Below, one piece after another: positions 2,807-42,948 of a stretch of DNA of 64,000 nt. The position numbers were made by a program, and so were the translations under genes. Under the pieces are notes generated by a model. That model made no database searches and was not told the DNA's origin. It worked only from the letters and a program-made list of their open reading frames with translations. Position 1 is the stretch's first letter. Every line of letters begins with the position of its first letter. The stretch is from Bacteroidales bacterium (GTDB lineage Bacteria; Bacteroidota; Bacteroidia; Bacteroidales; F082): the NCBI GenBank assembly GCA_045606865.1, contig JAZUST010000145.1, positions 9,359 through 73,358 on the forward strand, read 5' to 3'.

Positions 2807-3061
2807 ATGGAATTTTTAAATGAATTTATGGCGCCAGTTGTACTCGGTATTTGTTTAGTAATTGGTTGGATAGTTAAAAAGTGGATTGCCGATATTGACA
2901 ATAAATACATACCTACTATCGTTACAATTCTTGGTGCTGTACTTGCAGTATGGTTTAATGGTTGGGTTGTAACGCCTGAGATTATTTTAAGTGGTCTTAT
3001 TACAGGTGCCGCTTCAACAGGTATGCATCAGCTTTTCACTCAGTTTATTGAGAAAAACTAA
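2807..3061 (+). CDS. holin (Hol44 / phage_holin_5-like)
   Basis: TTGGAGG SD. 84 aa with two or three hydrophobic helices (VVLGICLVIGWIV, IVTILGAVLAVWF) and the typical ...GLITGAASTGMHQLFTQ... end. Confidence 0.8.
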   Translation: MEFLNEFMAPVVLGICLVIGWIVKKWIADIDNKYIPTIVTILGAVLAVWFNGWVVTPEIILSGLITGAASTGMHQLFTQFIEKN

Positions 3062-3082
3062 TGAAGGGTCGGGTGTGTATGA

Positions 3083-3598
3083 ATGGAAGCGATAAGAGAA
3101 TTACTTAAACTTGATTTTACCGCCGTCATTCTTACAGTGTTTATTATAATGTCCGGGATAATTGCAATGTATAGTATAATTGGTAAGTTTTCTGAAATAA
3201 TTGGGAAGCCTGTCAAATGGGTTAAACAGAGGCAATTAGACCATGATTTATTGGAGAAAAACAAGAAAGATATAAAAGACTTAAAAGATAAACACGAAGC
3301 CGATACTAAAAAATACGAGGCAAGTCATCAAGAATTGATTGATGATGTGAAAAACCTTACAAGTATTTTCGTAGAAAAGGAAATCGAAGACATGCGCTGG
3401 GAGATATTAAATTTCTGTTCTGCGTTGTCTAATGGGCGAAAATATAACAGAGAAGCTTACGCTCATGTATTTTCGACATACGAGAGATACGAGAAAATTC
3501 TTGAGGAAAACGGCAAAGAAAACGGACTTGTTGAAGAAAGCATGGCTTTTATAAGAAATCAATATCAGAAAGATTTGGAAAATGGTACGGTAAAGTGA
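3083..3598 (+). CDS. membrane-anchored coiled-coil protein
   Basis: N-terminal TM helix (AVILTVFIIMSGIIAMYSII) followed by a Lys/Glu-rich region. Ends TGA CCA TAA. Confidence 0.75.
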   Translation: MEAIRELLKLDFTAVILTVFIIMSGIIAMYSIIGKFSEIIGKPVKWVKQRQLDHDLLEKNKKDIKDLKDKHEADTKKYEASHQELIDDVKNLTSIFVEKEIEDMRWEILNFCSALSNGRKYNREAYAHVFSTYERYEKILEENGKENGLVEESMAFIRNQYQKDLENGTVK

Positions 3599-3620
3599 CC
3601 ATAAAATATAGGTTTTAAGG

Positions 3621-3659
3621 AGAGGGTGTTAATTTAGGTTAGCATCCTCTTCTTCTATT
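3621..3659 (+). terminator. probable intrinsic terminator
   Basis: Stem AGAGGGTG/CATCCTCT (one G-U pair) followed by TCTTCTATT. Confidence 0.45.
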
Positions 3660-3667
3660 ATTGTGAG

Positions 3668-4174
3668 GTGTTAAATATAGCACAAAAATGTAAATTACTT
3701 GCTCTTGATACCTCGTCAAGTAAGACGGGTTGGGCAATGTTTGAGAATGCAAAATATAAGAAATCGGGCGTTATAAACTTTGATACAAATGAGTGTAAAA
3801 AAAAATATAAAGGTAATTCAGAGCAACGCCTTGAAGATATGTGTTTGGCTATTATCAATCTATTAAGAGAGTATAAGCCGGACATTATCGTAATTGAAAA
3901 ATTGAACGTCGGCAGGAATATGGTTGCCGTAAGACATCTCGCTAAAGTGATTGGCGTAGTATACTGCTATTCCATTTTAAACAACTGTTTTTATTATGAG
4001 ATACAGGCAAGCCAATGGCGTAGTCAGATTGGAATACAGGCAAAGAATAGAAAACGTGAAGAGTTCAAACAATTAGCTATTGAATACGTAAAAAATACCC
4101 TCGGCATGTATGTAACGGATGATGAAGCTGATAGTATTTGTGCGGGGATTGGATATATAAAAATGTTTACATAG
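3668..4174 (+). CDS. RuvC-like Holliday-junction resolvase (phage/lactococcal type)
   Basis: ...LLALDTSSSKTGWAMF... (catalytic Asp), ...IIVIEKLNVGRN..., ...TDDEADSICAGIGY... match the RuvC-fold acidic tetrad layout. The start codon is uncertain (GTG 3668). Confidence 0.8.
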   Translation: MLNIAQKCKLLALDTSSSKTGWAMFENAKYKKSGVINFDTNECKKKYKGNSEQRLEDMCLAIINLLREYKPDIIVIEKLNVGRNMVAVRHLAKVIGVVYCYSILNNCFYYEIQASQWRSQIGIQAKNRKREEFKQLAIEYVKNTLGMYVTDDEADSICAGIGYIKMFT

Positions 4175-4192
4175 AAAGAGGGTGTATCAAAA

Positions 4193-4747
4193 TTGGTTTT
4201 AAAAATGTCAAAAGACAAAACCTTAGTGATTACAAAGTCAGGCACTACATATAAAAATGAGCACAACGCCGAGACAATAAAAATTATCATGCCAAAACAA
4301 ATTGACAACAAAGACTTAAGGCAGTGTTCAATTTGGCTGAGTTTTATGAATGAAGAAAAACTTGGCAAAGCAATTGATGTGTCTGAGTTTTTAACAGACT
4401 ACTCCTCTACTTACTACTATATTGAAATACCAATGGATAACATTTTTACCTATGTTGCTGGTAAGATTCAAATATGGTTAAAGTTGTTGGATAGTCAAAC
4501 TGAAATGGTTGATTTCACCAATTATGTTACTCACTATATCCACAAGCATCCTGACGAAGAACTTGAGGGCGAAATAACTGAGCAGGAACGGTCTGTATTA
4601 GAAAGTCTGACATTTAAACTTGATGCAACCTCTATTCAGTTAGGTGAAGTAACCGCTAAGGTTGAGGATATTGATGAATATGTAAGCGAGTTACAAGAGG
4701 GCGAAGTATTATTAGTACAGCATAGCAATGATGAAAACGAAGAATAA
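4193..4747 (+). CDS. hypothetical protein
   Basis: TTG 4193 (AGAGGGTG SD 8 nt upstream) or ATG 4205. 184 aa with an acidic C-terminus. TAA stop. Confidence 0.7.
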   Translation: MVLKMSKDKTLVITKSGTTYKNEHNAETIKIIMPKQIDNKDLRQCSIWLSFMNEEKLGKAIDVSEFLTDYSSTYYYIEIPMDNIFTYVAGKIQIWLKLLDSQTEMVDFTNYVTHYIHKHPDEELEGEITEQERSVLESLTFKLDATSIQLGEVTAKVEDIDEYVSELQEGEVLLVQHSNDENEE

Positions 4748-4827
4748 ACTGGTTGAAATGCCAGTTTTATCTGGATTTTAAAAAACTTTAATAATAAAAA
4801 TATAAAGCAGAAATGAGGATTTAATTT

Positions 4828-5064
4828 ATGATTAATTATTTTAGAATGAAAATGGCAGAATGGAAAGTTAAAGGTCTGTTCTATGGTACGATTGCTTCTT
4901 TTGTAGATAACAAGTCTGGCAGACTACAGACAATTTTGAATTTGATTGATTCTGTTAAAGGATTGACAGGAGAAGAACTGAGAACAGAATTTATTTCTGG
5001 TCTTGCAGGAATTATACACGATGAGGCTGAATTGGCTCGTCAGAATGAGACCAATGAAGAGTAA
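4828..5064 (+). CDS. hypothetical protein
   Basis: ATG after a GAGGA SD. 78 aa. TAA stop. Confidence 0.65.
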   Translation: MINYFRMKMAEWKVKGLFYGTIASFVDNKSGRLQTILNLIDSVKGLTGEELRTEFISGLAGIIHDEAELARQNETNEE

Positions 5065-5102
5065 TGAAATGTCTCTTTTATAGTGAAAATTGAGGTGATT
5101 TG

Positions 5103-5528
5103 ATGGCGAGAACATTTTCAACAGTTGTCGAGTTACAAAAACATATGGAATCTGCTTGTCGTAAAGCCGTAGAAAATGCTTGTAATAGGCTTCTCGGACG
5201 ATTACAGGAAATACTTGATGAAGAATACTATGATGTTTTTGAGCCTGAGCGTTATAAACGTACTATGTCTTTCTGGAGGTCGGCTACGACAAAAATGTTA
5301 GATAATACTTGCGGTCAAGTATTTATGAATCCCGATGTTATGCATTATAAAGCAGGTTGGTCAGGTAAAGCACAGATTGAGTCAGCCGCCAAAGGTTTAC
5401 ATGGTGGTTGGGATTATGAAGGTGTTAGCGACCATAAATATTGGGAAGTTTTTATAGCATACTGTGAAAAAAATGCACTAAAAATACTCAAAGAGGAATT
5501 AAGGGCGCAAGGGATTCCGATTAAATAG
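5103..5528 (+). CDS. hypothetical virion protein (weak HK97-gp10-like resemblance)
   Basis: ATG 4-5 nt after a GAGGTGA SD. ...YDVFEPERYKRTMSFWRS... resembles the Y..P..Y.RTG.L motif of gp10-type tail-completion proteins. Confidence 0.7.
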   Translation: MARTFSTVVELQKHMESACRKAVENACNRLLGRLQEILDEEYYDVFEPERYKRTMSFWRSATTKMLDNTCGQVFMNPDVMHYKAGWSGKAQIESAAKGLHGGWDYEGVSDHKYWEVFIAYCEKNALKILKEELRAQGIPIK

Positions 5529-5837: not shown

Positions 5838-7271
5838 ATGGATGATTTTATAGTCAAACTGATTGCGCGGTTAGATGCGAGCAAAACAAAGACCGATTTA
5901 AAAAGTATCGAATCTGACCTTAATGCGAGAGGAATAAACTTAAAAGCAAGTTTAGATACTGCTACCACAAAACAAGAATTAAAAAATTTAGCATCTCAGT
6001 TACAACAAATCCTTAAATCACAAGGTTTGGATATCGGAACCGACAAAATACTCGCAGGAATAAATCAAGTAAAACGAGAAGCGGCGAGTATGAAGAAAGT
6101 TCTTAGTGAAACAGATAAAGTTTCGGCTTTGACGAAGTTTCAAAATTATATGACTAAGAACACCAATATAACAAAGGCTGCAAAAAATCAAATTTTTGAG
6201 TGGATAAGAACGATAGAGAGTGCTGACGAATTAACTCGTGATGACTTAAACAATATTAACGCCCAGTTTAAGCAATTAGATACCAATATGCGAATGTCTG
6301 GTAGATTAGGTTTATCGTTTGGTGATTCGATTAAGAAAGGTATTGCTTCTTTCTCTGCTTGGCTTCCGGCAACAACAATTGTAATGGGCACTATCAATAC
6401 CATCAAGACAGGGATTAGGGATGTAAGAGAATTTGATGATTCTTTGCTTGAACTTTCTAAGGTCTCTGATTTATCAGCAGATGGACTTGCAAGAGTAACC
6501 GATGAGGCATATAAACTTGGTGATCGTGTTGGTAGAACAGGAAGGCAAGTTGTTGATGCGGTTACAGAATTTAAGCGTGCTGGGTTTGAATTAAATGACA
6601 GTATGGACATGGCTGAGTCTGCATTAGTTATGACTAATGTTGCTGAAGGTATTGATGATACAGCGGATGCTGCTGGAACTCTTATCTCTGTACTTAAGGG
6701 TTATAATATGGCTGAATCTGAGACAATGAACATTGTTGATAAGATTAACCAAGTATCAAATACAAGCCCTATTGGATTTGACCAAATTGCCGAAGGTCTT
6801 GAAAGAACTGCTGGCACAATGGCTCAAAGTGGTACGACGATTGACGAAACAATTGGTTTGATTACCGCCGGTTATGCACAACTTCGTAACGTTGAGAAAG
6901 TTTCTACTTCGCTCATCACACTGTCTGCAAGACTTCGTGGCGTTGATGAGGATGGTAATAAGATAGATGGCTTATCAGCAGAACTCCAAGATAGTTTTGG
7001 TAAGATTGGCGTTGCTATTGAAGACGCTGACGGTAATTTGAGAAGTATTTATGCCATTGCAAAAGATTATGCCGAAGTGCTTCCTACCCTATCAAGTAAG
7101 CAGAAGCAGTATTACGCCGAGCTTGCTGCTGGTAAACGTAATGTAACCACTTGGAACGCTATTACCCAACAGTTTCAAGATGCTGAACATGCCGTTGCAC
7201 AGTCATTAAATTCGGTTGGTAGTGCGGCTGAAGAAAATGAAAAATACTTAAAAAGTGTAAGTGGTAGAGTT
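5838..7271 (+). CDS. tail tape-measure protein, coding segment 1 of 3 (3' boundary approximate, about +/-10 nt)
   Basis: AAGGAGGAG SD. TP901-type TMP core (...SLLELSKVSDLSADGLARVTDEAYKLG..., ...VTEFKRAGF..., ...GFDQIAEGLERTAGTMAQSG...). TMP-like sequence ends at ...ENEKYLKSVSGR(V). The remaining 26 codons to the TAG at 7347 lie in intron RNA. Confidence 0.85.
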
Positions 7272-7650
7272 TACCACGTTATGCAGAAATGTATAACAAG
7301 AATGAATTTAATTGCAGGTAATCCCTTAGAGCCTTGCACCACAATATAGGAGAAATCACTATATGATGGTTTTAAAACGTAAGGATTGGGTGTTCGTGCA
7401 GCCAAGTACCCTAACGTATCCCGTAAAACATACGGTGTTTAGTCGAGGGTAAAGGTTCAACGACTAGATTCACGTCGAGTTGTAGACAAGAGAATAAGGG
7501 TGGAAATCCCGAATATCTACAACAACAATCGTAGGGCGCAATCGCAAATGGCGTGGGTGAAAATCCCTTAAATCGAAAAGGTCACTCTTAACACGTAATG
7601 GTGAAGATGAAGAAATAGTCTAAACTCTATTGAAAGGTAGAGATGTTGTT
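7272..7650 (+). ncRNA. group I ribozyme core of intron 1
   Basis: Dense, comparatively G+C-rich non-coding stretch with the R/S elements and several hairpins. No SD-led ORF. Confidence 0.65.
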
Positions 7651-7921: not shown

Positions 7922-10420
7922 ATGACAATTATACAAGATGATTTAATGAAAAAGATTATAGAAGATTATAATGCTGGTTTAAGTCCAAACAAATTGAGCG
8001 AAAAATATAATGATTTTTCACCATATCAAATCCGAGAAAATTTGAAGAAGCGCGGTGTTTTTCGGACGCTTTATTTTACAGACGATGAGTTAAAAAGCAT
8101 CAAAGAAGATTTCGAATCTGGTCTTACACTAAAACAGTTGGTGCAAAAATATCATAGACCGGAAGAAACCATAAGAAAAAAATTACAATCCTTTGGTTTG
8201 TATGATGCAAGAGTTCAGTTGCCCTACAGTAATGAAGAAGTAGCTATTTTAGAAAAATACTACCCACTTGGCGATTGGGATAACCTTTTTAAATTTTTGC
8301 CTAATAGAGACAGGACTTCAATCTCAACAAAAGCATCTAAATTAGGGATATCACAAACAGATTGGAATTGGGACGAATGCCGAGTGAAAGAAGTGTTAAA
8401 TAAAAAGGGTTATACATTGCTAACGAAATTTGAGAATATCAAAAACAAGCATAAACTAATTGACTCTAATGGGTATCTGTATTGCTGTACATTAATGGGA
8501 CTTATTTATGATAAGAGTTTGCCTTTAATATTTTCACAAGATAATATTTATACGATTGATAATATTAAAACTTATATAAAACTAAACAATATTAATTGTG
8601 AATTGGTTTCTAACACTTATACAAATAATACATCGGATTTAAGTTGGAAGTGTCGTTGTGGAAAAATTTTTCTTTGCCCGTGGGCAAGGTTTCAAGCAGG
8701 GAAACATCAATGCAACGAATGCTCAGAGATAGAGTCGTTTGATAAGATTTCTTTCTCAATTGATGATGTGGAAAAAATGATAGAGGGTAAACCTTATAAA
8801 ATGATAAGAGATACTTTTACGAGGCTATCAAATGGTTTTACTGCAATAACAAATGACGGATATTATGTGTTGGTTGATAAAAATAATATATACAAAAACA
8901 CAATGCCAGAGATATTTCACACCAACAACCCTTACACAATAGACAATATAAAACATTATATTGAGATCAATGGTATTCGTACAAAATTAATATCTACTAC
9001 TTATGATAATAACAGCAAAAAACTAAAATGGGAGTGTGGCTGTTGTGGTAAAGTATTTGATAGAGGATGGAACTCATTTTTAAATGGTGCAACAGAGTGT
9101 TTAAATTGCTCTTCTACTAAGCGTGGTATAAATAGTAGAATTTCAGCTTTTGAAATTAAAGAATTTATTGAAAGCAACGGTTATTATTTGGGTGAAAATA
9201 TTGAGGATATTGCAATATCCAATAAGAAGTTTTCTATTTATGATGATGAAGGATATTTTTATGAAACAACATGGAGTCATATGAAAAGCCATAAAACTCC
9301 AGAAAAATTTCATCCTAACAACAAACATACTATTAACAATATTAATCATTATATGGACTTACATAGAAATGGCGAATATCAATGCATTAGCAAAATATAT
9401 AAAGCGAATGATGGGATTATGAAATTCAAACACACTCCTTGCGGCTGTGAGTTCAAAGCAACATGGACAGAAATGCAAGGAAAGTTGATGTTGAATAAAA
9501 AAGATAGATATTTTAAACAATGTCCTAATTGTAATACTAATAAAACTGAATCTATACATGCATCAACATTAAAGCAAGTATTTTTACACGAGCATCCTGA
9601 TACTATTACCGAAGATAAAAGCTGTATAAATCCTAAAACCAACAGACCTCTTCCGACCGACATTGTTAATCATAGATTGAGAATTGCCATTGAGATTCAA
9701 AGTGACTATCATGACACAGAAGAAAGAAAGTTGGTTGACACATTTAAAAAGGAATTTTGGCTTGACAAAGGATACGCTTTTTATGACCCAGATATAAGGG
9801 ATTATTCTATTTTAGAAATGGTTCAAATATTTTTCCCAAATATATCAAGCATACCAAAGTATGTAGATTTCAAATTCTCGGACTGTATAGATTTTAGGAA
9901 AGTACAAAAACTGTTAAACGGCGGGCGTACGATATCAGAAATTTCAAAAATACTAAACATAAAAAAGGGTACTATACAAGGGTTTATCAATAATAAAAAG
10001 GTTATTTTACCGAAAGATTATAAAAGGAAGGTTTTTAATATCAAACCAATAGTACGACTTTCTAAAAGTGGAGAATTTATGGAAAGGTTTGAGTCTTTAT
10101 ATGAGATTAACAACAAAGGGTTTGCTTCGGGAACTGTTGGACGAGTTTTAAGGGGAAAGCAGTCGTTTTCATATGATAGTTTTTGGGTTTATGAAGAAGA
10201 TTATCTATGTGAAAATTATAAAATACCTGAAATAGAGTTTGATAAATTCACACTGCCCGTAGATAAATATGATATGAACAATGTTTTCATTTGTAGTTAC
10301 ACATCGATATATGAAGCAGAGTTAGATTCTAAATCAAATAGAAATGAGATATATCGTGTGGCAACAGGAAATAGAAAATCATGCAAAGATGAAAAGTGGA
10401 AATTGCATAAAGTAGCCTAA
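7922..10420 (+). CDS. intron-encoded homing-endonuclease-like protein: HTH repeats, three zinc-ribbon modules, PD-(D/E)XK (EDxHD/Vsr-like) nuclease core, NUMOD-like C-terminal repeats
   Basis: 832 aa. There are three ~110-aa repeats, each ending in C.CG...W..F..G...C..C. The putative nuclease core is ...PLPTDIVNHRLRIAIEIQSDYHD.... The C-terminus has two ...F.S.YE......G....VLRG... type modules typical of HEG DNA-binding domains. Confidence 0.8.
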   Translation: MTIIQDDLMKKIIEDYNAGLSPNKLSEKYNDFSPYQIRENLKKRGVFRTLYFTDDELKSIKEDFESGLTLKQLVQKYHRPEETIRKKLQSFGLYDARVQLPYSNEEVAILEKYYPLGDWDNLFKFLPNRDRTSISTKASKLGISQTDWNWDECRVKEVLNKKGYTLLTKFENIKNKHKLIDSNGYLYCCTLMGLIYDKSLPLIFSQDNIYTIDNIKTYIKLNNINCELVSNTYTNNTSDLSWKCRCGKIFLCPWARFQAGKHQCNECSEIESFDKISFSIDDVEKMIEGKPYKMIRDTFTRLSNGFTAITNDGYYVLVDKNNIYKNTMPEIFHTNNPYTIDNIKHYIEINGIRTKLISTTYDNNSKKLKWECGCCGKVFDRGWNSFLNGATECLNCSSTKRGINSRISAFEIKEFIESNGYYLGENIEDIAISNKKFSIYDDEGYFYETTWSHMKSHKTPEKFHPNNKHTINNINHYMDLHRNGEYQCISKIYKANDGIMKFKHTPCGCEFKATWTEMQGKLMLNKKDRYFKQCPNCNTNKTESIHASTLKQVFLHEHPDTITEDKSCINPKTNRPLPTDIVNHRLRIAIEIQSDYHDTEERKLVDTFKKEFWLDKGYAFYDPDIRDYSILEMVQIFFPNISSIPKYVDFKFSDCIDFRKVQKLLNGGRTISEISKILNIKKGTIQGFINNKKVILPKDYKRKVFNIKPIVRLSKSGEFMERFESLYEINNKGFASGTVGRVLRGKQSFSYDSFWVYEEDYLCENYKIPEIEFDKFTLPVDKYDMNNVFICSYTSIYEAELDSKSNRNEIYRVATGNRKSCKDEKWKLHKVA

Positions 10421-10483
10421 TCAACTACTGATATACATAATCAACAACTGGTTGAATTTTGCGAATTCAATTGAATATATTTG

Positions 10484-10677
10484 AAAGTTACAATGTTTGA
10501 AAGTGCTGTTGAAGACTTGTCAAACAGTGCAATAGATTCAGAATTTATAAAGGGTATAATAGAACTTGGAACAACAGGCGTTAAAGGTCTTGATGCTTTT
10601 ATTGAAAAGTTTGGAATGTTAACAACACTCCTTGGTGCTGGTGGCATAATTGCTGGCATCAAAAACGTTGGTGGACT
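10484..10677 (+). CDS. tail tape-measure protein, coding segment 2 of 3 (both boundaries approximate)
   Basis: Frame open only from 10475, with no SD or start of its own. ...FESAVEDLSNSAIDSEFIKGIIELGTTGVKGLDAFIEKFGMLTTLLGAGGIIAGIKNVGG... continues the TMP pattern. Confidence 0.7.
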
Positions 10678-11250
10678 CAAATTCAGGGAGTCTTTGTTTT
10701 GAATTGCCTGACCTATCATTGTATAGAATAATCGGTCTATACAACAAATGGGAATACTCTAGCGTTTTAAAATAAATAGAGATGGGTTATATGGTCTACT
10801 CAGTAGACATCTCCGACAACTGGAGGTCTGGGACGTGACATAGAATTATAAGGCTACAATAGAAAATTGGAAACGATAAACTATGAATGCAGGTATGAAA
10901 AGTACATAAAAACATATAATTCGGTTTCTGGGCGTAAAGTCAAAGAACTATATGCGACTCATAATTATAATATCGTAAAGTCACTATCAGCAGATAAATC
11001 ACCTAAGTCATTTGATATGGTGAAATCTCAACGACTACCATCCATCTTATAGCAACACGATAGATTGCTATAGGAACGTATAGTCTGTACTGGCACCGAA
11101 TATGAGGCGGTGTAAAGTTGTAGTGCTATCTTATCAGCATATTTGTGGAACTCTCATTGCCGGAGTTGATAAGAAGGCAATAGAACATGAATTTCATTGG
11201 CAGAATTTAGACATAAAAATAAACACTCAACGATGAGTGTTTCGTGGCAT
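10678..11250 (+). ncRNA. group I ribozyme core of intron 2
   Basis: R/S elements 50 nt apart and P9-like hairpins (ATTGCC...GGCAAT about 11155-11185; AAACACTCA/TGAGTGTTT about 11220-11243). Only a spurious 61-codon ORF is present. Confidence 0.6.
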
Positions 11251-11320
11251 AATATAAACATTTGTGCGCATTATGAATACAAAGTTAAGCAAAATGTATT
11301 GTTTTAGTAGCCTTTTGGTA

Positions 11321-11349
11321 TTGACAAGTGTAAAGCAATTTGGTATAAT
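11321..11349 (+). promoter_or_regulatory. consensus sigma-A-type promoter
   Basis: TTGACA (11321-11326), a 17-nt spacer, then TGgTATAAT (-10 at 11344-11349 with an extended -10 TG). Confidence 0.75.
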
Positions 11350-11355
11350 ACATAT

Positions 11356-11473
11356 AGAAAAAGACAAAAGAGACGGAGATATCGGTCAAATATCTCAATG
11401 GTTTCCCTTTTTGTTTATATGGTTACATAAAATGTAGAAACCACTTCAACGGAGGAAATTGAGGTGGTTTTTA
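11356..11473 (+). ncRNA. candidate ~115-nt sRNA (antitoxin-like), runs from the promoter to the shared terminator
   Basis: Bounded by the consensus promoter and the hairpin+T5 terminator. No SD-led ORF. Its 5' part AAAGACAAAAGAGAC (11361-11375) can pair with the peptide mRNA leader. Confidence 0.5.
11436..11473. terminator. bidirectional intrinsic terminator shared by the convergent sRNA and peptide transcripts
   Basis: 9-bp stem CCACTTCAA/TTGAGGTGG (one G-U pair) with A-rich 5' and T5 3' flanks, so a U-tract is present on both strands. Confidence 0.7.
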
Positions 11474-11480
11474 TATGTTT

Positions 11481-11549
11481 TTATCTCGGTTTTGCAATAA
11501 GGAGCAATACCAGAGTTACAATTAATACGTAGTAGAAATCGTAATTCAT
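11481..11549 (-). CDS. 22-aa hydrophobic peptide MNYDFYYVLIVTLVLLLIAKPR (type I toxin-like)
   Basis: GAAAGGAGG SD 5 nt upstream of the ATG. TAA stop. Single TM-like core with a basic C-terminus. About 110-nt leader in which CCTTTC can sequester the SD. Confidence 0.55.
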   Translation of the reverse strand: MNYDFYYVLIVTLVLLLIAKPR

Positions 11550-11669
11550 ATCGACCTCCTTTCTGCCACCTACGGGGAGATGGACTTGCGAAAGGAAAAC
11601 CACCCTAACCATTCTTACAAAGACCAAAAGAAACTCAGAACAATTAAGCGTCTCTAATGTCCAATGAGC

Positions 11670-11698
11670 ATTATACCATTATTGTCGAATATTGTCAA
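11670..11698 (-). promoter_or_regulatory. consensus sigma-A-type promoter for the peptide mRNA
   Basis: On the minus strand: TTGACA (11698-11693), a 17-nt spacer, then TGgTATAAT (-10 at 11675-11670). Confidence 0.75.
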
Positions 11699-11702
11699 TA
11701 TA

Positions 11703-11730
11703 AAGACACCTTCGGGTGTCTTATTTTTAT
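11703..11730. terminator. intrinsic terminator (strong on +, usable on -)
   Basis: AAGACACC-TTCG-GGTGTCTT followed by ATTTTTAT on the + strand. The minus-strand flank is TTATATT. Confidence 0.75.
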
Positions 11731-11746
11731 GCCCGTTAATAAAACG

Positions 11747-11773
11747 ATAGCACCCTACTTGGGTGCTATTTTG
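11747..11773. terminator. intrinsic terminator (ends the minus-strand cassette; also followed by T-rich sequence on +)
   Basis: ATAGCACCC-TACTT-GGGTGCTAT. The minus-strand flank is CGTTTTATT and the plus-strand flank is TTTG. Confidence 0.7.
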
Positions 11774-11816: not shown

Positions 11817-11957
11817 ATGAAGCATCACTATATCAGAAAAATTAAACTTACAGATGATATAACGCTCGTGATATATGGATATACTCGTTTTGGCAAAGAC
11901 CATAATGAGTCTTGTCATTTAAAGTTCAAAAACGGCGAAATATATCCTATTGTTTAG
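11817..11957 (+). CDS. possible 46-aa ORF (MKHHYIRKIKLTDDITLVIYGY...)
   Basis: ATG 9 nt after GAGAGGA. TAG stop. Overlaps the 3' end of the convergent gene by 11 nt. No family recognised. Confidence 0.3.
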   Translation: MKHHYIRKIKLTDDITLVIYGYTRFGKDHNESCHLKFKNGEIYPIV

Positions 11958-12360
11958 GTGTCATTTGTATCCAGTCTAAAATTAATGATAACAACGCTAT
12001 CCCCAATGCAAAAAGAGAAATGACGAGAGCCGCCCACTTGTGAAAACCTTCTTTGCGTTCTTTGGCTCTTTTCTCTTTTTGGTGCTGAATATAATAATAG
12101 GCATCAAGGGTTATAAGATACTTGCCCGTATATTCATATTCGGCAGGTTCAATAAAATTGCCATCTTTATCCTTGATTGCATCTCTAACTTTAAATTGAT
12201 GTAGTTTGACAAACTCTATTGTACGAAGAATGTCTGCTACTTGTTTGTTTTTGATGTTAAAAGGTATATCCATCTTGGCACGTTTAATTGCTTTATATTG
12301 TTCAGGTGGCAAATATATATCTTCTGGGTGTATTTGGTCTGGTGTTTTAAGTACGCTCAT
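11947..12360 (-). CDS. C-terminally membrane-anchored protein, unknown function (intron cargo)
   Basis: ATG after AGGAGAGGATAC. 137 aa. Single C-terminal TM helix (WAALVISLFALGIALLSLILDWI). TAG stop. Confidence 0.75.
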   Translation of the reverse strand: MSVLKTPDQIHPEDIYLPPEQYKAIKRAKMDIPFNIKNKQVADILRTIEFVKLHQFKVRDAIKDKDGNFIEPAEYEYTGKYLITLDAYYYIQHQKEKRAKERKEGFHKWAALVISLFALGIALLSLILDWIQMTPKQ

Positions 12361-12395: not shown

Positions 12396-12713
12396 TTAAA
12401 AATCACTCTTACAACTATTACAATGCCATTGTTTTGTGGTTTTACCCAATGCAAAGATACCCCATAATGCTACACTACCTGCTTTTGATAAGCCTGAGAT
12501 TTTCTTGCAATCGGTTGACTTGCAGTATGGACAGGTTATTGTTGGGGTTGAGGGTTGGGGTTTTGAATTTGATGGCACATGTGCATCTGGAGGGTATTCT
12601 ATTTTTTCTGAATTTTCTATCGTTTTAAGTTTATAATTACACTTTACACAATATTGGTCGTAATCTCTATACACTTTATTACAAACAGGACACTGTTTCA
12701 TAGTATTACACAT
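12396..12713 (-). CDS. double zinc-ribbon protein, unknown function (intron cargo)
   Basis: N-terminal CPVC...CVKC ribbon, Pro/Ser linker, then C-terminal CPYC...(GSVALWGIFALG)...CNSC module. Start is ATG 12713 or 12701. Confidence 0.75.
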   Translation of the reverse strand: MCNTMKQCPVCNKVYRDYDQYCVKCNYKLKTIENSEKIEYPPDAHVPSNSKPQPSTPTITCPYCKSTDCKKISGLSKAGSVALWGIFALGKTTKQWHCNSCKSDF

Positions 12714-12733: not shown

Positions 12734-12762
12734 ATTATAACATATTATAGACGAATTTTCAA
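12734..12762 (-). promoter_or_regulatory. sigma-A-type promoter of the opposite-strand cassette
   Basis: On the minus strand: TTGAAA (12762-12757), a 17-nt spacer, then TATAAT (12739-12734). Lies about 20-35 nt upstream of the 12396..12713 start. Confidence 0.65.
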
Positions 12763-12877: not shown

Positions 12878-15800
12878 TCTTCAAGTCACATCATGGCAAG
12901 CATTAAGAGGTGGTATTGTAGCCACCACAAAAGCTATGGGGGCATGGCTTATTTCTAATCCAATGGGTTGGATTATCCTTTTGGGCGGAACAATCGCTGC
13001 CACCGTTGGATTAGTTGACTTATTTACAACTTCAGTAGAGGAGCATAGAGAAAAACTTGAAAGCCTGAAGTCCGAATATTCTGATATAAAATCCGAGTTG
13101 GATGGTTTAAAAGGTGAGTTAGACGGCACTCAAAGTAGAATAAATGAACTTGAAAACAAAGGGAAACTCACATTTACCGAAGCCGAAGAGTTAAACAATT
13201 TAAGAAAACAAAATAACGAATTACAACGTAGTATTGACTTATTAGAACTTCAGAAAAAAACAAAAAGTAAAGAGACCAATAATCAGTTTATTGAGACGAT
13301 GAACTCAGATATTGAACAAGAACTTTATACTAGAAATGAGAATGGTGAAGTCGTTCAATATATGCCTATGAGCGGTCAAACGGCTACCGATGATAACGAA
13401 GCAGATTATATAACTCAACGCTTTAAAGATTTAGAAAAGTTGAGGGACAAATTATCTTCTGCGTCTACAGAAGCTGAAAAAGAACGTATAAAAAGGCAGA
13501 TTAAAGGCATAGAAGATTATTTTGTTCAAAAAAACAAAGATTTTACCGAAACTGCTAAAGGCATAGACTATATTCAAAATCCTACCACAGAGGATGATAA
13601 AAAAGTCAATAAATGGCTCGACTATATCAACGACTTCCAAGATAAAATGGCTGTTGCTATGGATGGTGAAAATGCTAAAGAAAATGCTTTTAATCGACTT
13701 GTGGATAACTGGAAATTCGATGAAGCATTAAATCCATTACAAAAGCTCGGCAAAGAGGGTAAAGTTACTTTAGATGAACTCAAAAAGAGAATGGACGACC
13801 CTGTTTTTGTTAAGTTTGTCAACAAATTAAAAGATATAGGTTTTATTTCTGATACGACAGATGGTAGTTTAAGATTCCTTGCAAATGCTTTTAATGGAAC
13901 TACTCAGGCAGCCAGAAGTTATGTAAATCAATTATCAGACTTATCTTCTATTAAAAAGTTTATTAGTAATATTGATGAGGAAGCAAAAGCTCTTGGAACA
14001 ACCAAAGAAGCTTTGGGTGACCTTGTACAAGAACATATTTTGTTTAACAATACCGGATTAGATACAAGTGGTCAAATTTCTGCCTTACAGTTGTTGGGTT
14101 CTACTATAGATGGACTTTCTGGAAAAACAACGCGTCTAATTTCTCTTTTAAAGTATGCTGCTGGAGATTTCTCTGGAAGCAAGCTATCGGCTGGCACTGT
14201 TTACGATGCGGATGGAAACGCAATACATAGAACCGAAGATGAGATAAGAAATATTAATGCAAGACGACAAGGAAGTGCTCAGGCTGAATTAGATAAAATG
14301 AAAAAGGATTGGGAAAAGATTCAGGGTTTATTTAAAGAGGATGGTAATGAGAATCCCCCACCTTATACATCCGGCGATGACAAAGACTCCTCTTCCTCCA
14401 AAAATTCTGCTCTCGATAACTATCTCAAAGATGCTGAAAATCGTTACAAAATTCATCAAGACGAAACCGAGTACATCAACGACCTTAACTATGCACTAAA
14501 CAACCTAGTTAAAACAGAAGATGAGCGTCTTGATGTAACGGGCAAAATAAACGAGGCATATCGTGACCTTGCTGATAATCGCATTAAAGACCTTGAACAT
14601 CAAATTGATTTAACCAAGGAACTTAAAGGCGAAAATGCTGATGTAACATCTCAATACAAAGAAATTCAGAAAGTTGCAATTGAAGAAGCCGAAAGACTTC
14701 GTGCCATGGGCTATGACAATAATTCAAATGAAATACAGGCTCTTCAAAAGACTTGGTGGGATGCCGAAAATAGTAAACTTGACTTTTACTCTAAGCAACA
14801 TGAAATAATTCTTCGTGATATAGAGCACGCTCGTGACATGGTGCTTAATGCCGATGAAGATGCGAATGTAACTTCGTATTATAAACAACTCCAAGACGAA
14901 TATCATAGAGAAGCTGAAAGACTTCGTGCATTAGACCCTGAAAAATACAAAGAAGACATTCAGGAACTACAGCAGTTATGGTGGGATGTTCAGAACGAGA
15001 TGCTTGATTATAACAAGCAGGTTGTAGAAGACTTCCTTGATGAACTCCAAACCAAACTTGATGACTCTTACGACATTCGTATTAGTCGTCTAAATTCACA
15101 GTCCTCCCTCCTCTCAAGTCACTTCAACATAGTTAACGCAATTGCAGAGGAACAGCACAATCTTAACAAAGAGCTACTTGAGGCTGAAACAATTGGTGCT
15201 AAAATGAGTGAGCAAGAAAGAGAATCTTTACTTACTCGTGCCGAGCATAACAAACTTTCAGGAAAACTCAGTAATATAATGCTCGATATAACCGACTTAC
15301 AAAGCGATTATATGCGTGACCTTGAAAAAGCAACCGAGGACACGATTGAAGAAGTTACAAATCAGTATGAGCGTCAGTATGAACTGAAGATGAAAGAGTA
15401 TGAGATTATTAAGGCTGAACTAAACTTAATTAAAAAGCAACAAATACTTGAAAATACTCAAAATGAAAAATCGGTTAGAACTTGGAATGGCTCTAGTTGG
15501 ATATATGAAGCAAACCTTCAAGATGTATTAGATGCTCAGGAAGAAGTAGAAAATGCTAAGTATGAACTTGCAAGAGCGCAAGCTGAAGAGGCTCAACAAG
15601 TAGCTTTAAACGCTATAGACGCTAATGCTGATGCTTTAGAAACAGAAAAGAATAAACTAACATCTGTTATAGAAGATATGGCAGAGAGAATGGATGGTTC
15701 TGGTAAAGATATTACATCTATGTTAAAAACTATTGCCGAAACAGATTTACCTACATTTGATGCAATAATTCAAAGTATGGGTGAAAGCATTAAGGAAGCA

Positions 15801-16388
15801 TTAAATTTATCTGATGACGATATTAATGCTTTTCGCACTAGCAGTAACTTTACAATTAACCCCCTTGCAGAAATGAAGAAAAATTCTAGTGCATGGCATA
15901 CAGCAACAACACAAGAAGAGAGAGATTCTTTAGTAAGTGCAAATAAAGTTTATGCTAGAATGCTTGGTCTTGAGTATGAAGAATCTACAGGCAGATGGAA
16001 AAAGAAAGATGGCACTTATGCTTATGCATCTGGAACTAAAAATGCTAAAAAAGGCGTTGGCTTATTTGATGAAAAAGGCTTTGGTTCTGAAGTCGTTCTT
16101 ACAAATGATGGTATACTTACACAGTTTAATGGTGGCGAGAGAGTATTTTCACCTGAAATGGCTGATAGGTTATGGGAAATGGCACAGAAAAATAATATTT
16201 TAACCCCGTCAATAAGACAGCCTGACTTAAGCAATGTAACTACAATTGAAGAGAGAATTAACAATGCGATAAATAACGCTATAACCAATAATGCTTTCGG
16301 TGATACATACATGATTAAAGATGTACAAGTAAATGATTCTAACAACGCAGTCAGAGGATTTATGAACTACTTGAAAAAGATAGTTTAG
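12878..16388 (+). CDS. tail tape-measure protein, coding segment 3 of 3 (5' boundary approximate)
   Basis: Frame open from 12831. The first ATG (12936) has no SD. A TM-like segment (WLISNPMGWIILLGGTIAATVGLV) is followed by more than 1100 aa of coiled coil with internal repeats. TAG stop. Confidence 0.85.
14634..15020 (+). repeat. in-frame tandem repeat (75-codon period, about 1.7 copies) inside the TMP
   Basis: GAAAGACTTCGTGC is identical at 14691-14704 and 14916-14929 (225-nt offset). Protein repeat is ...NVTS.YK..Q....EAERLRA...........IQ.LQ..WWD..N..LD.... Confidence 0.8.
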
Positions 16389-23742: not shown

Positions 23743-25326
23743 TTAGCTTGTGGGAGTTTTAGGAATGTAAAAATTGAGTTTAATTTTGATGTCATTATTC
23801 TCAAAAATTTCTATCCGGTCTATGAATGTTGCCATAAAACTTCTATCAATATCTTTTTCTTCTATTTGTCCAAATTTTATAAGTTTTTCTATAATTTTCG
23901 GTGTGTTATTTTCGTTAGATGTTTGGGATTTTTTTTCTAAAAAAGCAATTTGGTTATTATAGTTTTCATGTTCTTTATTATACTTGCTTTTCAAAAGAAA
24001 AAATTCATCTTTATTAATCAACCCTTCTTTATAATCGTCATATAAAGATAGCATTTTACTTTCTAATTTTGAGACTAAGACTTTTATTTTATCAACTTCA
24101 TCACTTAAATTAGCCTTTTTATAGGTTTCCGCCTTCGTCTCTTCGTAAATACGTTGCAAGTCTTTAATCTTCTTAATACTTTCATTCATTGTATTTAGCA
24201 AAACCTCCATTAAACGTTTGTGGGAAATGCTATGTCTAGAGCAAATTGTTTTACCATATCTAATATAGGAACCGCAGTTATAATAAAAATCATTACCACA
24301 GTTTCTTTTAGACATTGCTCTACCACAATCGCCACATTTTAAAAATCCTGCAAAAACACTAATATTTTGATTAAAATCAACTTGCATAGTATCTCTTAGT
24401 AATAGATTTTGAACATTAGACCAAAGCTCTTCAGAAATTATTGCTGGGTGTGTATCTTTAACAACTATCCACTTCTCTTCGGGGAGCAAAACAGCTTTGC
24501 CATGCATTCTCCTTTGGGTTTTTGATTGCACCATCGAGCCGACATACATTTCATTTTTTAGTATTCTATGAACAGTTGAGTAAGTCCAATAACTAGTGCT
24601 ATCATTCCGTTTAGCGTTTGTATAACGCATTCCCATTGCTTTTTTATATTCTGACGGACAAAGCACCCCTTCAGAATTTAAGATTTTTGCAATTGCAACT
24701 TTCCCCTGACCTTCAGAATACATTTTGAATATTTTATTAACAACGCTTGCTGCATATTCATCAATAACCAATTTATGTTTATCTGTTGCAGATTTTAAGT
24801 AACCATAACTTGGAAATGCACCAACAAACTCACCGTTCTTTTGCTTTGCTTTAAACGCCGATTGAACTTTTTTACTTATATCTCTCGCATATTGTTCATT
24901 GAATATGTTTTTTACAGGCATAAGCAGGTCATACTCACCTTCAAAACTATCAATATTGTCGTTGACAGCGATAAATCTTACATTCTTTTTAGGGAAATAT
25001 CTTTCAAGATACTTTCCGGTATCAATATAATCTCTACCAAATCTTGAAAGGTCTTTTACTATTACACAACCTATATTACCCATTTCGATATCATCAATCA
25101 TTCTTTTAAAACTTGGTCTATTAAAATTTGTTCCCGTAAACCCATCATCTATGTATTCTTCATACACATCTAAATTATTATTAAAACAAAATTGGCTGAT
25201 AATTTTTCTTTGCGATTCAATACTATCGCTTTCTTTTTTGTCTCCATCCTCTCTTGACAATCTCAAATAAGCAGCCACCTTATATGAATTATCAGAATAT
25301 CTTCTTTTCCTATTTCTATTCGCCAT
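23743..25326 (-). CDS. large serine recombinase (integrase)
   Basis: N-terminal resolvase domain ...AAYLRLSREDGDKKESDSIESQR... (catalytic Ser), ...VIVKDLSRFGRD.... Then a recombinase domain, a Cys-rich zinc-ribbon (CGDCGRAMS...CSRH) and a coiled coil. 527 aa. Confidence 0.95.
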   Translation of the reverse strand: MANRNRKRRYSDNSYKVAAYLRLSREDGDKKESDSIESQRKIISQFCFNNNLDVYEEYIDDGFTGTNFNRPSFKRMIDDIEMGNIGCVIVKDLSRFGRDYIDTGKYLERYFPKKNVRFIAVNDNIDSFEGEYDLLMPVKNIFNEQYARDISKKVQSAFKAKQKNGEFVGAFPSYGYLKSATDKHKLVIDEYAASVVNKIFKMYSEGQGKVAIAKILNSEGVLCPSEYKKAMGMRYTNAKRNDSTSYWTYSTVHRILKNEMYVGSMVQSKTQRRMHGKAVLLPEEKWIVVKDTHPAIISEELWSNVQNLLLRDTMQVDFNQNISVFAGFLKCGDCGRAMSKRNCGNDFYYNCGSYIRYGKTICSRHSISHKRLMEVLLNTMNESIKKIKDLQRIYEETKAETYKKANLSDEVDKIKVLVSKLESKMLSLYDDYKEGLINKDEFFLLKSKYNKEHENYNNQIAFLEKKSQTSNENNTPKIIEKLIKFGQIEEKDIDRSFMATFIDRIEIFENNDIKIKLNFYIPKTPTS

Positions 25327-35030: not shown

Positions 35031-35107
35031 TGGCTGACCCTGTTGGATTCGAACCAACGGAATGCAGGAGTCAAAGTCCTGTGCCTTACCGACTTGGCTA
35101 AGGGTCA
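35031..35107 (-). tRNA. tRNA-Gln (anticodon UUG), CCA encoded
   Basis: Minus strand TGACCCT-TA-GCCAAGTCGGTAAGGC-A-CAGGA-CTTTGAC-TCCTG-CATTC-GTTGG-TTCGAAT-CCAAC-AGGGTCA-G-CCA. Full cloverleaf, closely like bacterial tRNA-Gln. Confidence 0.9.
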
Positions 35108-35242: not shown

Positions 35243-35336
35243 TGGTGGGATAGATCAGAGTCGAACTGATAACCAAGGGTATTCAACAGCAATATCCCTT
35301 CACGCTGTAAAGCTCTGCCGATTGAGCTACTATCCC
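35243..35336 (-). tRNA. 94-nt tRNA-like gene with canonical acceptor, D and T arms but a non-canonical 41-nt anticodon/variable region; identity undetermined
   Basis: GGGATAG-TA-GCTC-AATCGGCA-GAGC-[41 nt]-ATCAG-TTCGACT-CTGAT-CTATCCC-A-CCA. The 41 nt fold either as ACAGC/GCTGT with a 13-nt loop plus a long variable arm, or as a 9-bp hairpin. Confidence 0.6.
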
Positions 35337-38604: not shown

Positions 38605-38724
38605 TCAATAATCTTGACTAACCTTTTCTCTATGATTCTTTATACAAAACGCAGAAATTATGATAATAGGTATGACTATAATAGCCAGCACACCTATGAC
38701 AAGTCCCTTTATTGCCCAATTCAT
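38605..38724 (-). CDS. 39-aa single-pass membrane peptide
   Basis: ATG 38724, 9 nt after GGAGGG. MNWAIKGLVIGVLAIIVIPIIIISAFCIKNHREKVSQDY. TGA stop. Confidence 0.45.
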   Translation of the reverse strand: MNWAIKGLVIGVLAIIVIPIIIISAFCIKNHREKVSQDY

Positions 38725-42397: not shown

Positions 42398-42513
42398 TAT
42401 AAATTCTCCTTACTGTCTCCAAAATGATATAGTGATGTATAATCCAAACCATGCAAAGAACAGAATAAGCAATCCTAATATTGACAGTCCTGCAATTCCC
42501 AAAATTTTAAGTA

Positions 42514-42948
42514 TTAACATTTATTTTTCTCCTTTGATTGCATTTCTGCACCGCAATTCGGACAATAATTGGCTTCATATGCTTCAATACACCCACAACT
42601 TGAACACTCATAATCTTCGCTCTCAAAATCAGGCTCTGCAAAAATTCTCTTTTTAATCCAGTGCATAAGTTTGGGCTTATCTTTATTTGGAATTACAATT
42701 GGTTCAATGTATAATGTTTTAGAGTCATCCATCCTTAAGAAATCCTCAATCTTATTTTTACATTCTTCACAATAATGTTTTTCACCACAAAACATCTTTG
42801 ACATATTTTCACTTGCATTTTGTATATATGTTGTAGCACTATCTCTGCCATCATTAGTAGGATTAATGTCATGCCCATAAACATCGACAGTATAATATGT
42901 GCTACCTTCTATTGGTTTCTTACATCTATCACAAACAAATTGAAACAT
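42514..42948 (-). CDS. zinc-ribbon-rich hypothetical protein
   Basis: 144 aa. CDRC..., ...CEEC..., ...CSSCGC...CPNCG. Confidence 0.7.
   Translation of the reverse strand: MFQFVCDRCKKPIEGSTYYTVDVYGHDINPTNDGRDSATTYIQNASENMSKMFCGEKHYCEECKNKIEDFLRMDDSKTLYIEPIVIPNKDKPKLMHWIKKRIFAEPDFESEDYECSSCGCIEAYEANYCPNCGAEMQSKEKNKC

Follow-up and report, generated by a model that had tools for sequence, protein, structure and literature searches.

The 64,000-nucleotide stretch analyzed here and referred to as the window (contig JAZUST010000145.1 of assembly GCA_045606865.1, positions 9,359 to 73,358) carries a cassette of about 400 bases in which a minus-strand open reading frame (ORF) of 22 codons and a plus-strand candidate small RNA (sRNA) lie between two convergent predicted promoters and meet at a single hairpin. 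An earlier reading of the letters alone, hereafter the sequence-only reading, had likened this locus to the convergent modules txpA/RatA and bsrG/SR4, members of the toxin-antitoxin (TA) class called type I. The present analysis supports that view through a conserved ORF, an sRNA structure that tolerates the variation found, and an allelic cassette encoding a peptide of the Hol_Tox family. We consider it probable that the locus is a type I TA module that combines antisense overlap at the 3' ends with sequestration of the Shine-Dalgarno (SD) sequence in cis, and that it stands as a unit of its own, insulated by terminators, in a “moron” island carried by a large temperate phage from gut Clostridia.

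The promoter of the peptide mRNA (11698..11670, minus strand) and that of the antisense sRNA (11321..11349, plus strand) both consist of TTGACA, a spacer of 17 nt, and TGgTATAAT. When the 64-kb window was scanned for sigma-70 promoters, these two, both with the TG, were the only sites that matched the consensus at 12 of 12 positions; they face each other at a distance of 320 bp. Because they are the sole such matches in the window and are oriented toward each other, the convergent pair is not a chance product of AT-rich DNA. The sequence-only reading had described a consensus promoter on the minus strand and an equally perfect one on the plus strand, and both descriptions hold in position and in quality.

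Transcription from the minus-strand promoter would yield an mRNA with a leader of ~114 nt (11550..11663, minus strand), close to the ~110 nt proposed earlier. The leader has a stem-loop on its 5' side (11662-11620) and an anti-SD/SD hairpin (11598-11555), with hypervariable bases at 11636-11618. The SD sequence GAAAGGAGG (11563-11555, minus strand) ends 5 nt before the ATG and pairs with the anti-SD sequence UUUCCUUUC at 11598-11590. In the RNAfold prediction this UUUCCUUUC/SD pairing encloses an inner 6-bp CCAUCU/AGGUGG stem, and the SD bases have pairing probabilities of 0.9-1.0 in the ensemble. The nested stem that was said to bury the SD is therefore recovered by the fold, and the spacing of 5 nt between SD and ATG is as it had been read.

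The ORF itself (11481..11549, minus strand) encodes MNYDFYYVLIVTLVLLLIAKPR, followed by a stop codon, and is the candidate type I toxin gene. In agreement with the hydrophobic peptide of 22 amino acids (aa) recognized from the letters, its product consists of a 15-residue hydrophobic core, FYYVLIVTLVLLLIA, with a mean hydropathy of 2.8, and a K-P-R tail. Type I toxins are described as hydrophobic proteins of <60 aa with a predicted transmembrane helix and a charged C terminus (PMC6563280); the 22-aa peptide has these properties, with a short helix and a minimal tail.

The plus-strand promoter would drive a candidate antitoxin sRNA of ~120 nt (11356..11478, plus strand). In its predicted fold, a 5' stem-loop that encloses an inner hairpin is joined by a single-stranded linker to a long terminator helix, after which comes UUUUUAUAUGUUUUU. 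This RNA folds far better than shuffled sequences (z = -4.27). Both RNAs would run into a shared bidirectional terminator hairpin (11441..11467, with extended arms spanning 11429-11479), where they overlap; the hairpin had been placed at the same position in the sequence-only reading. Its 9-nt loops are mutually complementary (UUUCCUCCG / CGGAGGAAA). The U-tract is strong on the plus strand and weaker on the minus strand, where the hairpin starts 13 nt past the stop codon of the ORF. At their 3' ends the two predicted RNAs are perfectly complementary over about 40-50 nt. The antisense overlap that is expected of a type I TA system is thus present in silico, in the form of a convergent promoter, a shared terminator that is strong on the plus strand, and a structured RNA.

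Two further hairpins lie upstream of the toxin gene. An intrinsic terminator with a 9-bp stem and the tail CGTTTTATTA (11747..11769, minus strand) closes the preceding genes for a Zn-ribbon protein and a 137-aa protein, and a hairpin composed of AAGACACC-TTCG-GGTGTCTT (11703..11722) is located 4 nt upstream of the toxin -35 element. Together they are predicted to shield the toxin promoter from read-through. The hairpin at 11703..11722 is a putative insulator and plus-strand terminator, and it forms the upstream boundary of the conserved cassette.

Variation was examined in six near-identical copies of the locus: the window, an IMG/VR contig (IMGVR_UViG_3300031555_010653), a Clostridia metagenome-assembled genome (MAG), and three short gut-metagenome contigs, which were reached via a mis-called 56-aa ORF. 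In the IMG/VR contig the cassette is 99% identical over 605 bp and in the Clostridia MAG it is 97% identical, against an identity of 68-88% for the flanking genes in these contexts. The toxin promoter hexamers, the stems of the SD hairpin, and the shared terminator are unchanged in all six copies. All three variable positions of the SD hairpin are unpaired, and in the hairpin at 11703..11722 the stem is unchanged and only loop bases differ. The sRNA promoter is likewise unchanged in the four copies that contain it; it is deleted in contig L035 and lies beyond the end of the short contig L034. In the 5' stem-loop of the sRNA the copies differ by a single pair-preserving substitution and by an indel of 1 nt located in an internal loop.

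In the ORF there are three substitutions, all at third codon positions and all synonymous (P of about 0.014, or 0.055 if only transitions are considered), and the frame of the 22-codon ORF is the only open frame in which every substitution is synonymous. The peptide thus appears to be translated. The sequence-only reading was to be given up if homologous loci did not conserve the ORF; it is conserved, with synonymous changes only. In the sRNA, all 38 base pairs of the fold are kept among four variants. Two stem substitutions convert C-G to U-G and G-U to A-U, changes that are harmless on the plus strand only, and since pairs are kept in the plus-strand sense alone, structural constraint appears to act on the plus-strand RNA. 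Coding on this strand is excluded by the 1-nt indel, which falls in a U-run. The convergent noncoding RNA of ~115 nt that had been proposed to end at the shared hairpin is therefore supported, with a slightly greater predicted length and a structure that tolerates all changes seen in the copies.

Alleles of the cassette were found through homologues of the upstream 137-aa ORF, a route that led to contigs L044, L048, L049, L060, and L062. In L048 and L049, similarity to the window covers the upstream terminators together with the toxin promoter and breaks off immediately past the -10 element; it returns at sRNA position +8 and extends across the sRNA promoter. The promoter anchor sequences of the locus are TTGACAAGTGTAAAGCAATTTGGTATAAT and AAGACACCCGA.GGTGTCTTT..ATTGACAA. 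The inner sequences of 265-358 nt are unrelated to that of the window and have the same design. The toxin promoter is TTGACA/TATAAT with TG, and the sRNA promoter is identical to that of the window. A structured leader holds the SD inside a hairpin, which in L048 is nested like that of the window (z = -5.0), and is followed by an ORF for a hydrophobic peptide of 28-29 aa with a KK-rich tail. The shared terminator overlaps the last codons of this ORF, and a structured sRNA that starts with AGAAAAAG (z = -5.2 and -2.8) is encoded opposite. The sRNA/mRNA overlap is kept in all three cassette types, those of the window, L048, and L049.

The 28-aa peptide of L049, MVTYDTLFQLGLLIVGIIGICLSINKKN, passes the gathering score of the Pfam family PF16935 (Hol_Tox) with 23.4 versus 23.3 bits (E = 5.6e-5). 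What we take to be the sequences of TxpA, BsrG, and PepG1 match the same model (E = 1e-7 to 1e-9), and PF16935 is presumably, on the strength of these matches, the TxpA/BsrG/SprG family of type I toxins. As judged from sequence comparison, the allelic cassettes are the strongest evidence for a type I TA system at this locus and appear decisive.

Other features of the slot were noted in the same contigs. In L048 (Logan SRR5679017_44137), positions 3865-3867 read ATA where the start codon is expected, 7 nt after GGAGG; the 29-codon ORF, (I)TLQELFWIVSIAWICFQALDNLMNKKKK, has no in-frame ATG, GTG, or TTG upstream, and it may represent a naturally disarmed toxin. L044 (Logan SRR30832638_52463) carries at 2846-5524 a PemK_toxin gene and an IS605 OrfB/TnpB gene between the same flanks (about 11738 and 11182 in the window), and in L060 and L062 the slot is filled by other DNA. 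Given the PemK gene of L044, the cassettes of L048 and L049, and the other DNA in L060 and L062, the slot is an accessory site of hypervariable content in which toxin genes recur. On the far side of the shared hairpin, a distal minus-strand terminator with a strong U-tract (11221..11242) is an optional part of the cassette. It is present in the window, IMG/VR, MAG, L035, and L048 copies and absent from L033 and L049, and for this reason is not general to the design.

The 3' overlap that arises from convergent transcription into one hairpin is the sole robust complementarity between sRNA and mRNA. The sequence-only reading had also pointed to a near repeat (11361-11375 / 11620-11635) through which the 5' segment of the sRNA could form ~15 bp with the mRNA leader. 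This pairing exists, in that the sRNA segment pairs with leader nucleotides 24-46 in a duplex of -18.6 kcal/mol; a functional role for it is not supported. Among 500 random 81-nt segments of the window, 108 pair at least as well with the 5' part of the mRNA, so the pairing is at chance level. No other stretch of the module varies as much as the mRNA side of the repeat (10 of 19 columns), and the sRNA side is nearly unchanged; in L033 the pairing is lost, the cognate duplex being down to -10.1 kcal/mol.

Other candidate contacts were considered and set aside. An anti-SD-like segment of the sRNA, UUUCCCUUUUUG, was rejected as evidence for pairing with the SD/AUG region because 92 of 600 background segments pair equally well. 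A compensatory small hairpin in the sRNA linker was dropped, being weak (-2 to -4 kcal/mol) and missing from the consensus fold. Across the three cassettes, no consistent sRNA target was found outside the overlap. In the window, the 5' domain of the sRNA (11363-11425) resembles its own leader (11591-11661) in the same sense, with UGGUUUCCCUUU similar to the anti-SD stretch UGGUUUUCCUUU and GACAAAAGAGACG similar to GACAUUAGAGACG; L048 and L049 have equivalents, in which the element shared by sRNA and leader is UGGAAAUCCA and CGGUUGACC, respectively. This likeness is weak (P = 0.03-0.08 versus background per cassette, in three cassettes) and is not relied on here. No Rfam (release 15) family was detected in the region at the gathering score, and at E <= 10 the only hits were STnc130 and MicC, which fall on the terminators at the flanks, and a piece of RNase P lying more upstream.

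Starting from the promoters, the ORF, the RNA structures, their conservation, and the allelic cassettes of a known toxin family, all established in silico, we infer the two transcripts, the toxicity of the peptide, a decay mechanism, and a biological role as follows. The strong constitutive promoter on the minus strand would produce an mRNA of ~230 nt for a 22-aa peptide that inserts into the membrane, and this mRNA would be poorly translatable, with the anti-SD of its own leader predicted to pair with the SD. From the second, equally strong promoter, a structured sRNA of ~120 nt would be made that ends at the shared hairpin. If the mRNA read through to the distal terminator at 11221-11242, complementarity would grow to ~120 nt and cover the whole sRNA. 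First contact would be made through the complementary terminator loops, by analogy with txpA/RatA, bsrG/SR4, and SprG/SprF (PMC3834814, PMC8167048, PMC6563280), and the RNA duplex would lead to decay of the RNase III type and possibly to tighter sequestration of the SD. Were the unstable sRNA to be lost along with the prophage, the peptide would be made and would damage the membrane, which would favor retention of the element, prophage or island, or abort infection.

Several observations weigh against a type I TA module. The energy of the SD hairpin is ordinary, with 327 of 1,000 shuffled sequences folding equally well, and the energy of the leader is ordinary relative to shuffles as well. The 22-aa peptide is very short, just 15 residues making up its core and just K-P-R its charged tail. 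It has no Pfam, NCBIfam, or tblastn match, and a 48-aa extended version of the ORF has no Pfam or NCBIfam match either. Homology to Hol_Tox is not demonstrable: the peptide does not match the PF16935 hidden Markov model even at E <= 10, and the N-terminal Y-D motif that it has in common with this family comes with an unconvincing alignment. Searches of Pfam and NCBIfam also revealed no Fst-like or PepA1-like sequence in it. The weak minus-strand U-tract of the shared hairpin makes the 3' end of the mRNA and the length of the overlap uncertain, complementarity beyond that overlap does not exceed chance, and the sample is confined to six near-identical copies and two alleles. Finally, L035 (ENA ERZ28436077, NODE_322368) has a 53-nt deletion, corresponding to window positions 11311-11363, that removes the sRNA promoter and the first sRNA bases; apart from two synonymous changes, nothing is altered in its toxin promoter, leader, and ORF. 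Such a loss should be forbidden if the antitoxin were strictly essential, and it is the one finding for which the model has no explanation. The coverage of this contig is 1.1x, and the deletion may be an artefact or the mark of a dying copy.

Some of these points would also suit a nontoxic small membrane protein with an accessory (moron) function for the phage, for example in superinfection exclusion or in the modulation of a host membrane protein, whose level is tuned by the antisense RNA and the leader, with no addiction or killing involved. Such a protein could well be very short, with a minimal charged tail and without a match to any toxin family; L035 appears to tolerate the loss of the sRNA promoter, and the window has further small hydrophobic ORFs within ordinary operons. 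However, one of the allelic cassettes that these promoters bracket codes for a Hol_Tox peptide of the TxpA/BsrG type, and the ATA at the start position in L048 is the knock-down expected of a harmful gene. Moreover, a buried SD, double terminator insulation, and a dedicated antisense RNA, together with a perfect constitutive promoter, form the signature of a gene that must stay off, and we regard a harmless product as unlikely. It is less likely still that two unrelated genes merely share a terminator, the plus-strand RNA being a trans-acting phage sRNA whose targets lie elsewhere, in host or phage, and the peptide being controlled by its own leader alone. Bidirectional terminators are common between convergent genes, our terminator scan yielded a similar hairpin from between unrelated genes, and no significant pairing was found beyond the overlap; yet both genes move as one unit in every context found, the alleles exchange sRNA body and peptide gene jointly between fixed promoters, and the overlap is kept in three cassette types, extending over the last ORF codons in L048 and L049.

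Two other explanations strike us as very improbable. The ORF might encode the precursor of a short hydrophobic signaling peptide, SHP/Rgg-like or PrgQ/iCF10-like, under antisense control as in prgQ/prgX; a size of 22 aa matches that of pheromone precursors, and the layout of convergent promoters and antisense RNA recalls prgQ/Anti-Q. The charges are arranged the other way round, though, with an acidic/aromatic N terminus and a basic C terminus where SHP and PrgQ have a basic N terminus and a hydrophobic C terminus; no regulator of the RRNPP, Rgg, or PrgX type is adjacent, the neighboring genes coding for a Zn-ribbon protein and for a tail-anchored protein of 137 aa; and one allele belongs to a toxin family. 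We give just as little credence to an untranslated ORF, with noncoding RNAs made from both strands or conservation that reflects an element at the DNA level. The near-total nucleotide identity of the copies leaves little power to judge this, and the energy of the leader is unexceptional, but a consensus SD at ideal spacing, synonymous substitutions in three of three cases in the sole open frame, and alleles that keep an ORF of the same type despite quite different nucleotide sequences all speak for translation.

The surroundings of the module bear on the proposed type I TA system. The 64-kb window, with a G+C content of 34%, represents a large temperate phage with a large serine integrase (23743-25326) and genes for ribonucleotide reductase, DNA polymerase, a primase-helicase, and two tRNAs (35034-35107 and 35246-35336, minus strand; Rfam RF00005, 62.9 and 43.1 bits). 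The module shares an island, oriented opposite to the late genes, with the Zn-ribbon ORF (12396-12713, minus strand) and the ORF of the 137-aa tail-anchored protein (11947-12360, minus strand), the latter without a family match. This island is flanked by tape-measure pieces at 5838-7349 and 12936-16388 and adjoins an 832-aa HNH-endonuclease-like ORF at 7922-10420. The temperate phage with its serine integrase, the retention of the island in a prophage remnant, and the PemK gene in the L044 slot make this a context that fits prophage-borne type I TA systems (PMC6563280, PMC3834814).

The remnant in question is the copy in the Clostridia MAG (L032, JAZUOX010000005.1, 90-9056), where the island has an extra ORF of 252 aa in addition to the Zn-ribbon ORF, the 137-aa ORF, and the module. 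On one side it is bordered by rpsT, a transposase of the IS200 type, and a truncated piece of the tape-measure gene, which give it the look of a prophage remnant that has kept the island; on the other side are chromosomal genes of the glucuronyl-esterase-like kind. In the window, the tape-measure gene seems to be split into 5838-7349 (PhageMin_Tail), a 73-aa ORF resembling a tape-measure protein at 10481-10702, and 12936-16388, with the HNH-like ORF and the opposite-strand island between the pieces. The IMG/VR relative shows an identical split without the HNH ORF, and Rfam revealed no intron in the split region of the window. The third-best promoter of the window (12734-12762, minus strand; TTGAAA-17-TATAAT with TG) lies 5' of the Zn-ribbon ORF, and with this promoter of its own the island looks independently expressed, as expected for genes active in a lysogen. 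Two other small hydrophobic ORFs with good SDs, of 39 aa (38605-38724, minus strand) and 36 aa (42410-42520, minus strand), are found within minus-strand operons; they have neither a convergent promoter nor an sRNA-like partner.

Among GenBank phages and PLSDB plasmids, megablast or blastn with the region and 25 kb of the window and tblastn with the peptide gave no relevant match, and none of 29 IMG/VR loci anchored on Zn-ribbon homologues has the module by blastn or nhmmer. Pattern scans for the anti-SD...SD arrangement, both promoters, and peptide patterns returned the one IMG/VR contig only; a scan with the terminator pattern returned unrelated phages, and two JGI metagenome scans yielded nothing or spurious membrane proteins. 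In L014 (IMGVR_UViG_3300032167_000162), the only one of the 29 Zn-ribbon loci with a possible small toxin-like ORF, a 29-aa ORF, MLEVTCSVISVIIAVLGLAYTIYRDNKKR, is located at 4427-4516 directly downstream of a Zn-ribbon homologue and behind an extended -10 element. It looks like a type I toxin, has no Pfam match, and is possibly unrelated. A 10-nt direct repeat, TTGATAAGAA, with copies 605 bp apart was rejected as a target-site duplication because the right-hand copy is not conserved in other contexts.

Type I TA systems are hard to find by homology and almost uncharted in uncultured gut Firmicutes and their phages. The occurrence of three different toxin/antitoxin cassettes between identical promoters offers a natural case for studying specificity and cassette turnover, and the locus marks a hypervariable accessory slot, also host to a PemK-type toxin, among the tail genes of large temperate phages of Clostridia. 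Should the peptide prove toxic, it and its compact control region could serve as a tool for counter-selection or containment in Clostridia, like the type I toxins of C. difficile (bioRxiv 10.1101/2020.03.04.976019). The understanding of type I systems as such is unchanged by this locus. Its layout and probable function appear to match those of known prophage type I systems of Firmicutes, and the shared terminator recalls par (Fst) of pAD1; only modestly new are the minimal 22-aa toxin candidate, the exchange of whole cassettes between fixed promoters, and the site within a split tape-measure region. It is tempting, if rather doubtful, to combine these aspects further. The fixed promoters would then be recombination anchors by which gut Clostridia phages swap unrelated cassettes of toxin mRNA and antitoxin RNA. 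The 22-aa peptide would found a new minimal family, among the shortest toxins known outside Ibs, and control would be exerted by mimicry of the leader, the sRNA competing with a leader segment for its intramolecular partner in place of classical antisense action.

Among characterized systems, txpA/RatA of the skin element and bsrG/SR4 of SPbeta in Bacillus subtilis and SprG/SprF of Staphylococcus aureus are likewise prophage-borne and convergent, overlap at the 3' ends, and encode a small toxin with a single helix. Like loci of the TxpA/BsrG type, the present one has a prophage location and a convergent candidate antitoxin whose complementarity lies at the 3' end of the peptide mRNA. In toxin mRNAs of this type the SD lies inside a double-stranded region (PMC3834814), as is predicted for the mRNA described here, and the L049 allele encodes a member of PF16935. 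Unlike the family, the window's own 22-aa peptide has no PF16935 match and is much shorter than BsrG (38 aa) or TxpA. In contrast to bsrG/SR4, the predicted overlap of ~40-50 nt is shorter and essentially confined to the terminator, unless the mRNA reads through to 11221, and the RNAs of the locus have no Rfam match.

The par locus of pAD1, which encodes the fst RNA I and RNA II, combines a short sRNA with a structured toxin mRNA, transcribed from two convergent promoters toward a single bidirectional terminator that they share (PMC8167048). The hairpin at 11441-11467 provides the same shared-terminator convergent layout as par of Enterococcus faecalis pAD1 and sprA1/SprA1AS of S. aureus. Those systems differ in that the translation initiation region is contacted by pairing, in par through the direct repeats DRa and DRb and in SprA1AS through the 5' domain; the equivalent complementarity is here at chance (108/500 for the leader, 92/600 for SD/AUG) and is not conserved, that with the leader being lost in L033. 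With the SHP/Rgg and PrgQ pheromone systems the ORF agrees in neither charge layout, which is opposite, nor neighborhood, where no such regulator was found.

The prophage TA systems CD0977.1-RCd11 and CD0956.2-RCd10 of Clostridioides difficile likewise occur in Clostridia, consist of convergent overlapping genes, and encode toxins in which a basic C terminus follows a hydrophobic N-terminal part; a role in the maintenance of mobile elements has been proposed for the type I systems of this species (PMC6563280, PMC7699646). Their toxins are longer than the 22-aa peptide (34-59 aa), have lysine-rich tails, and show no sequence similarity to it in our searches, and the cassette studied here differs in lying between fragments of a tape-measure gene and in being swapped as one block between promoters that stay fixed. 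Ibs/Sib of Escherichia coli is unlike the present locus in that Sib is fully antisense to ibs, and the two systems come from different organisms and have no sequence relation. The Ibs toxin is nonetheless an almost purely hydrophobic peptide of only 18-19 aa, and 22 aa is therefore not too small for a toxin.

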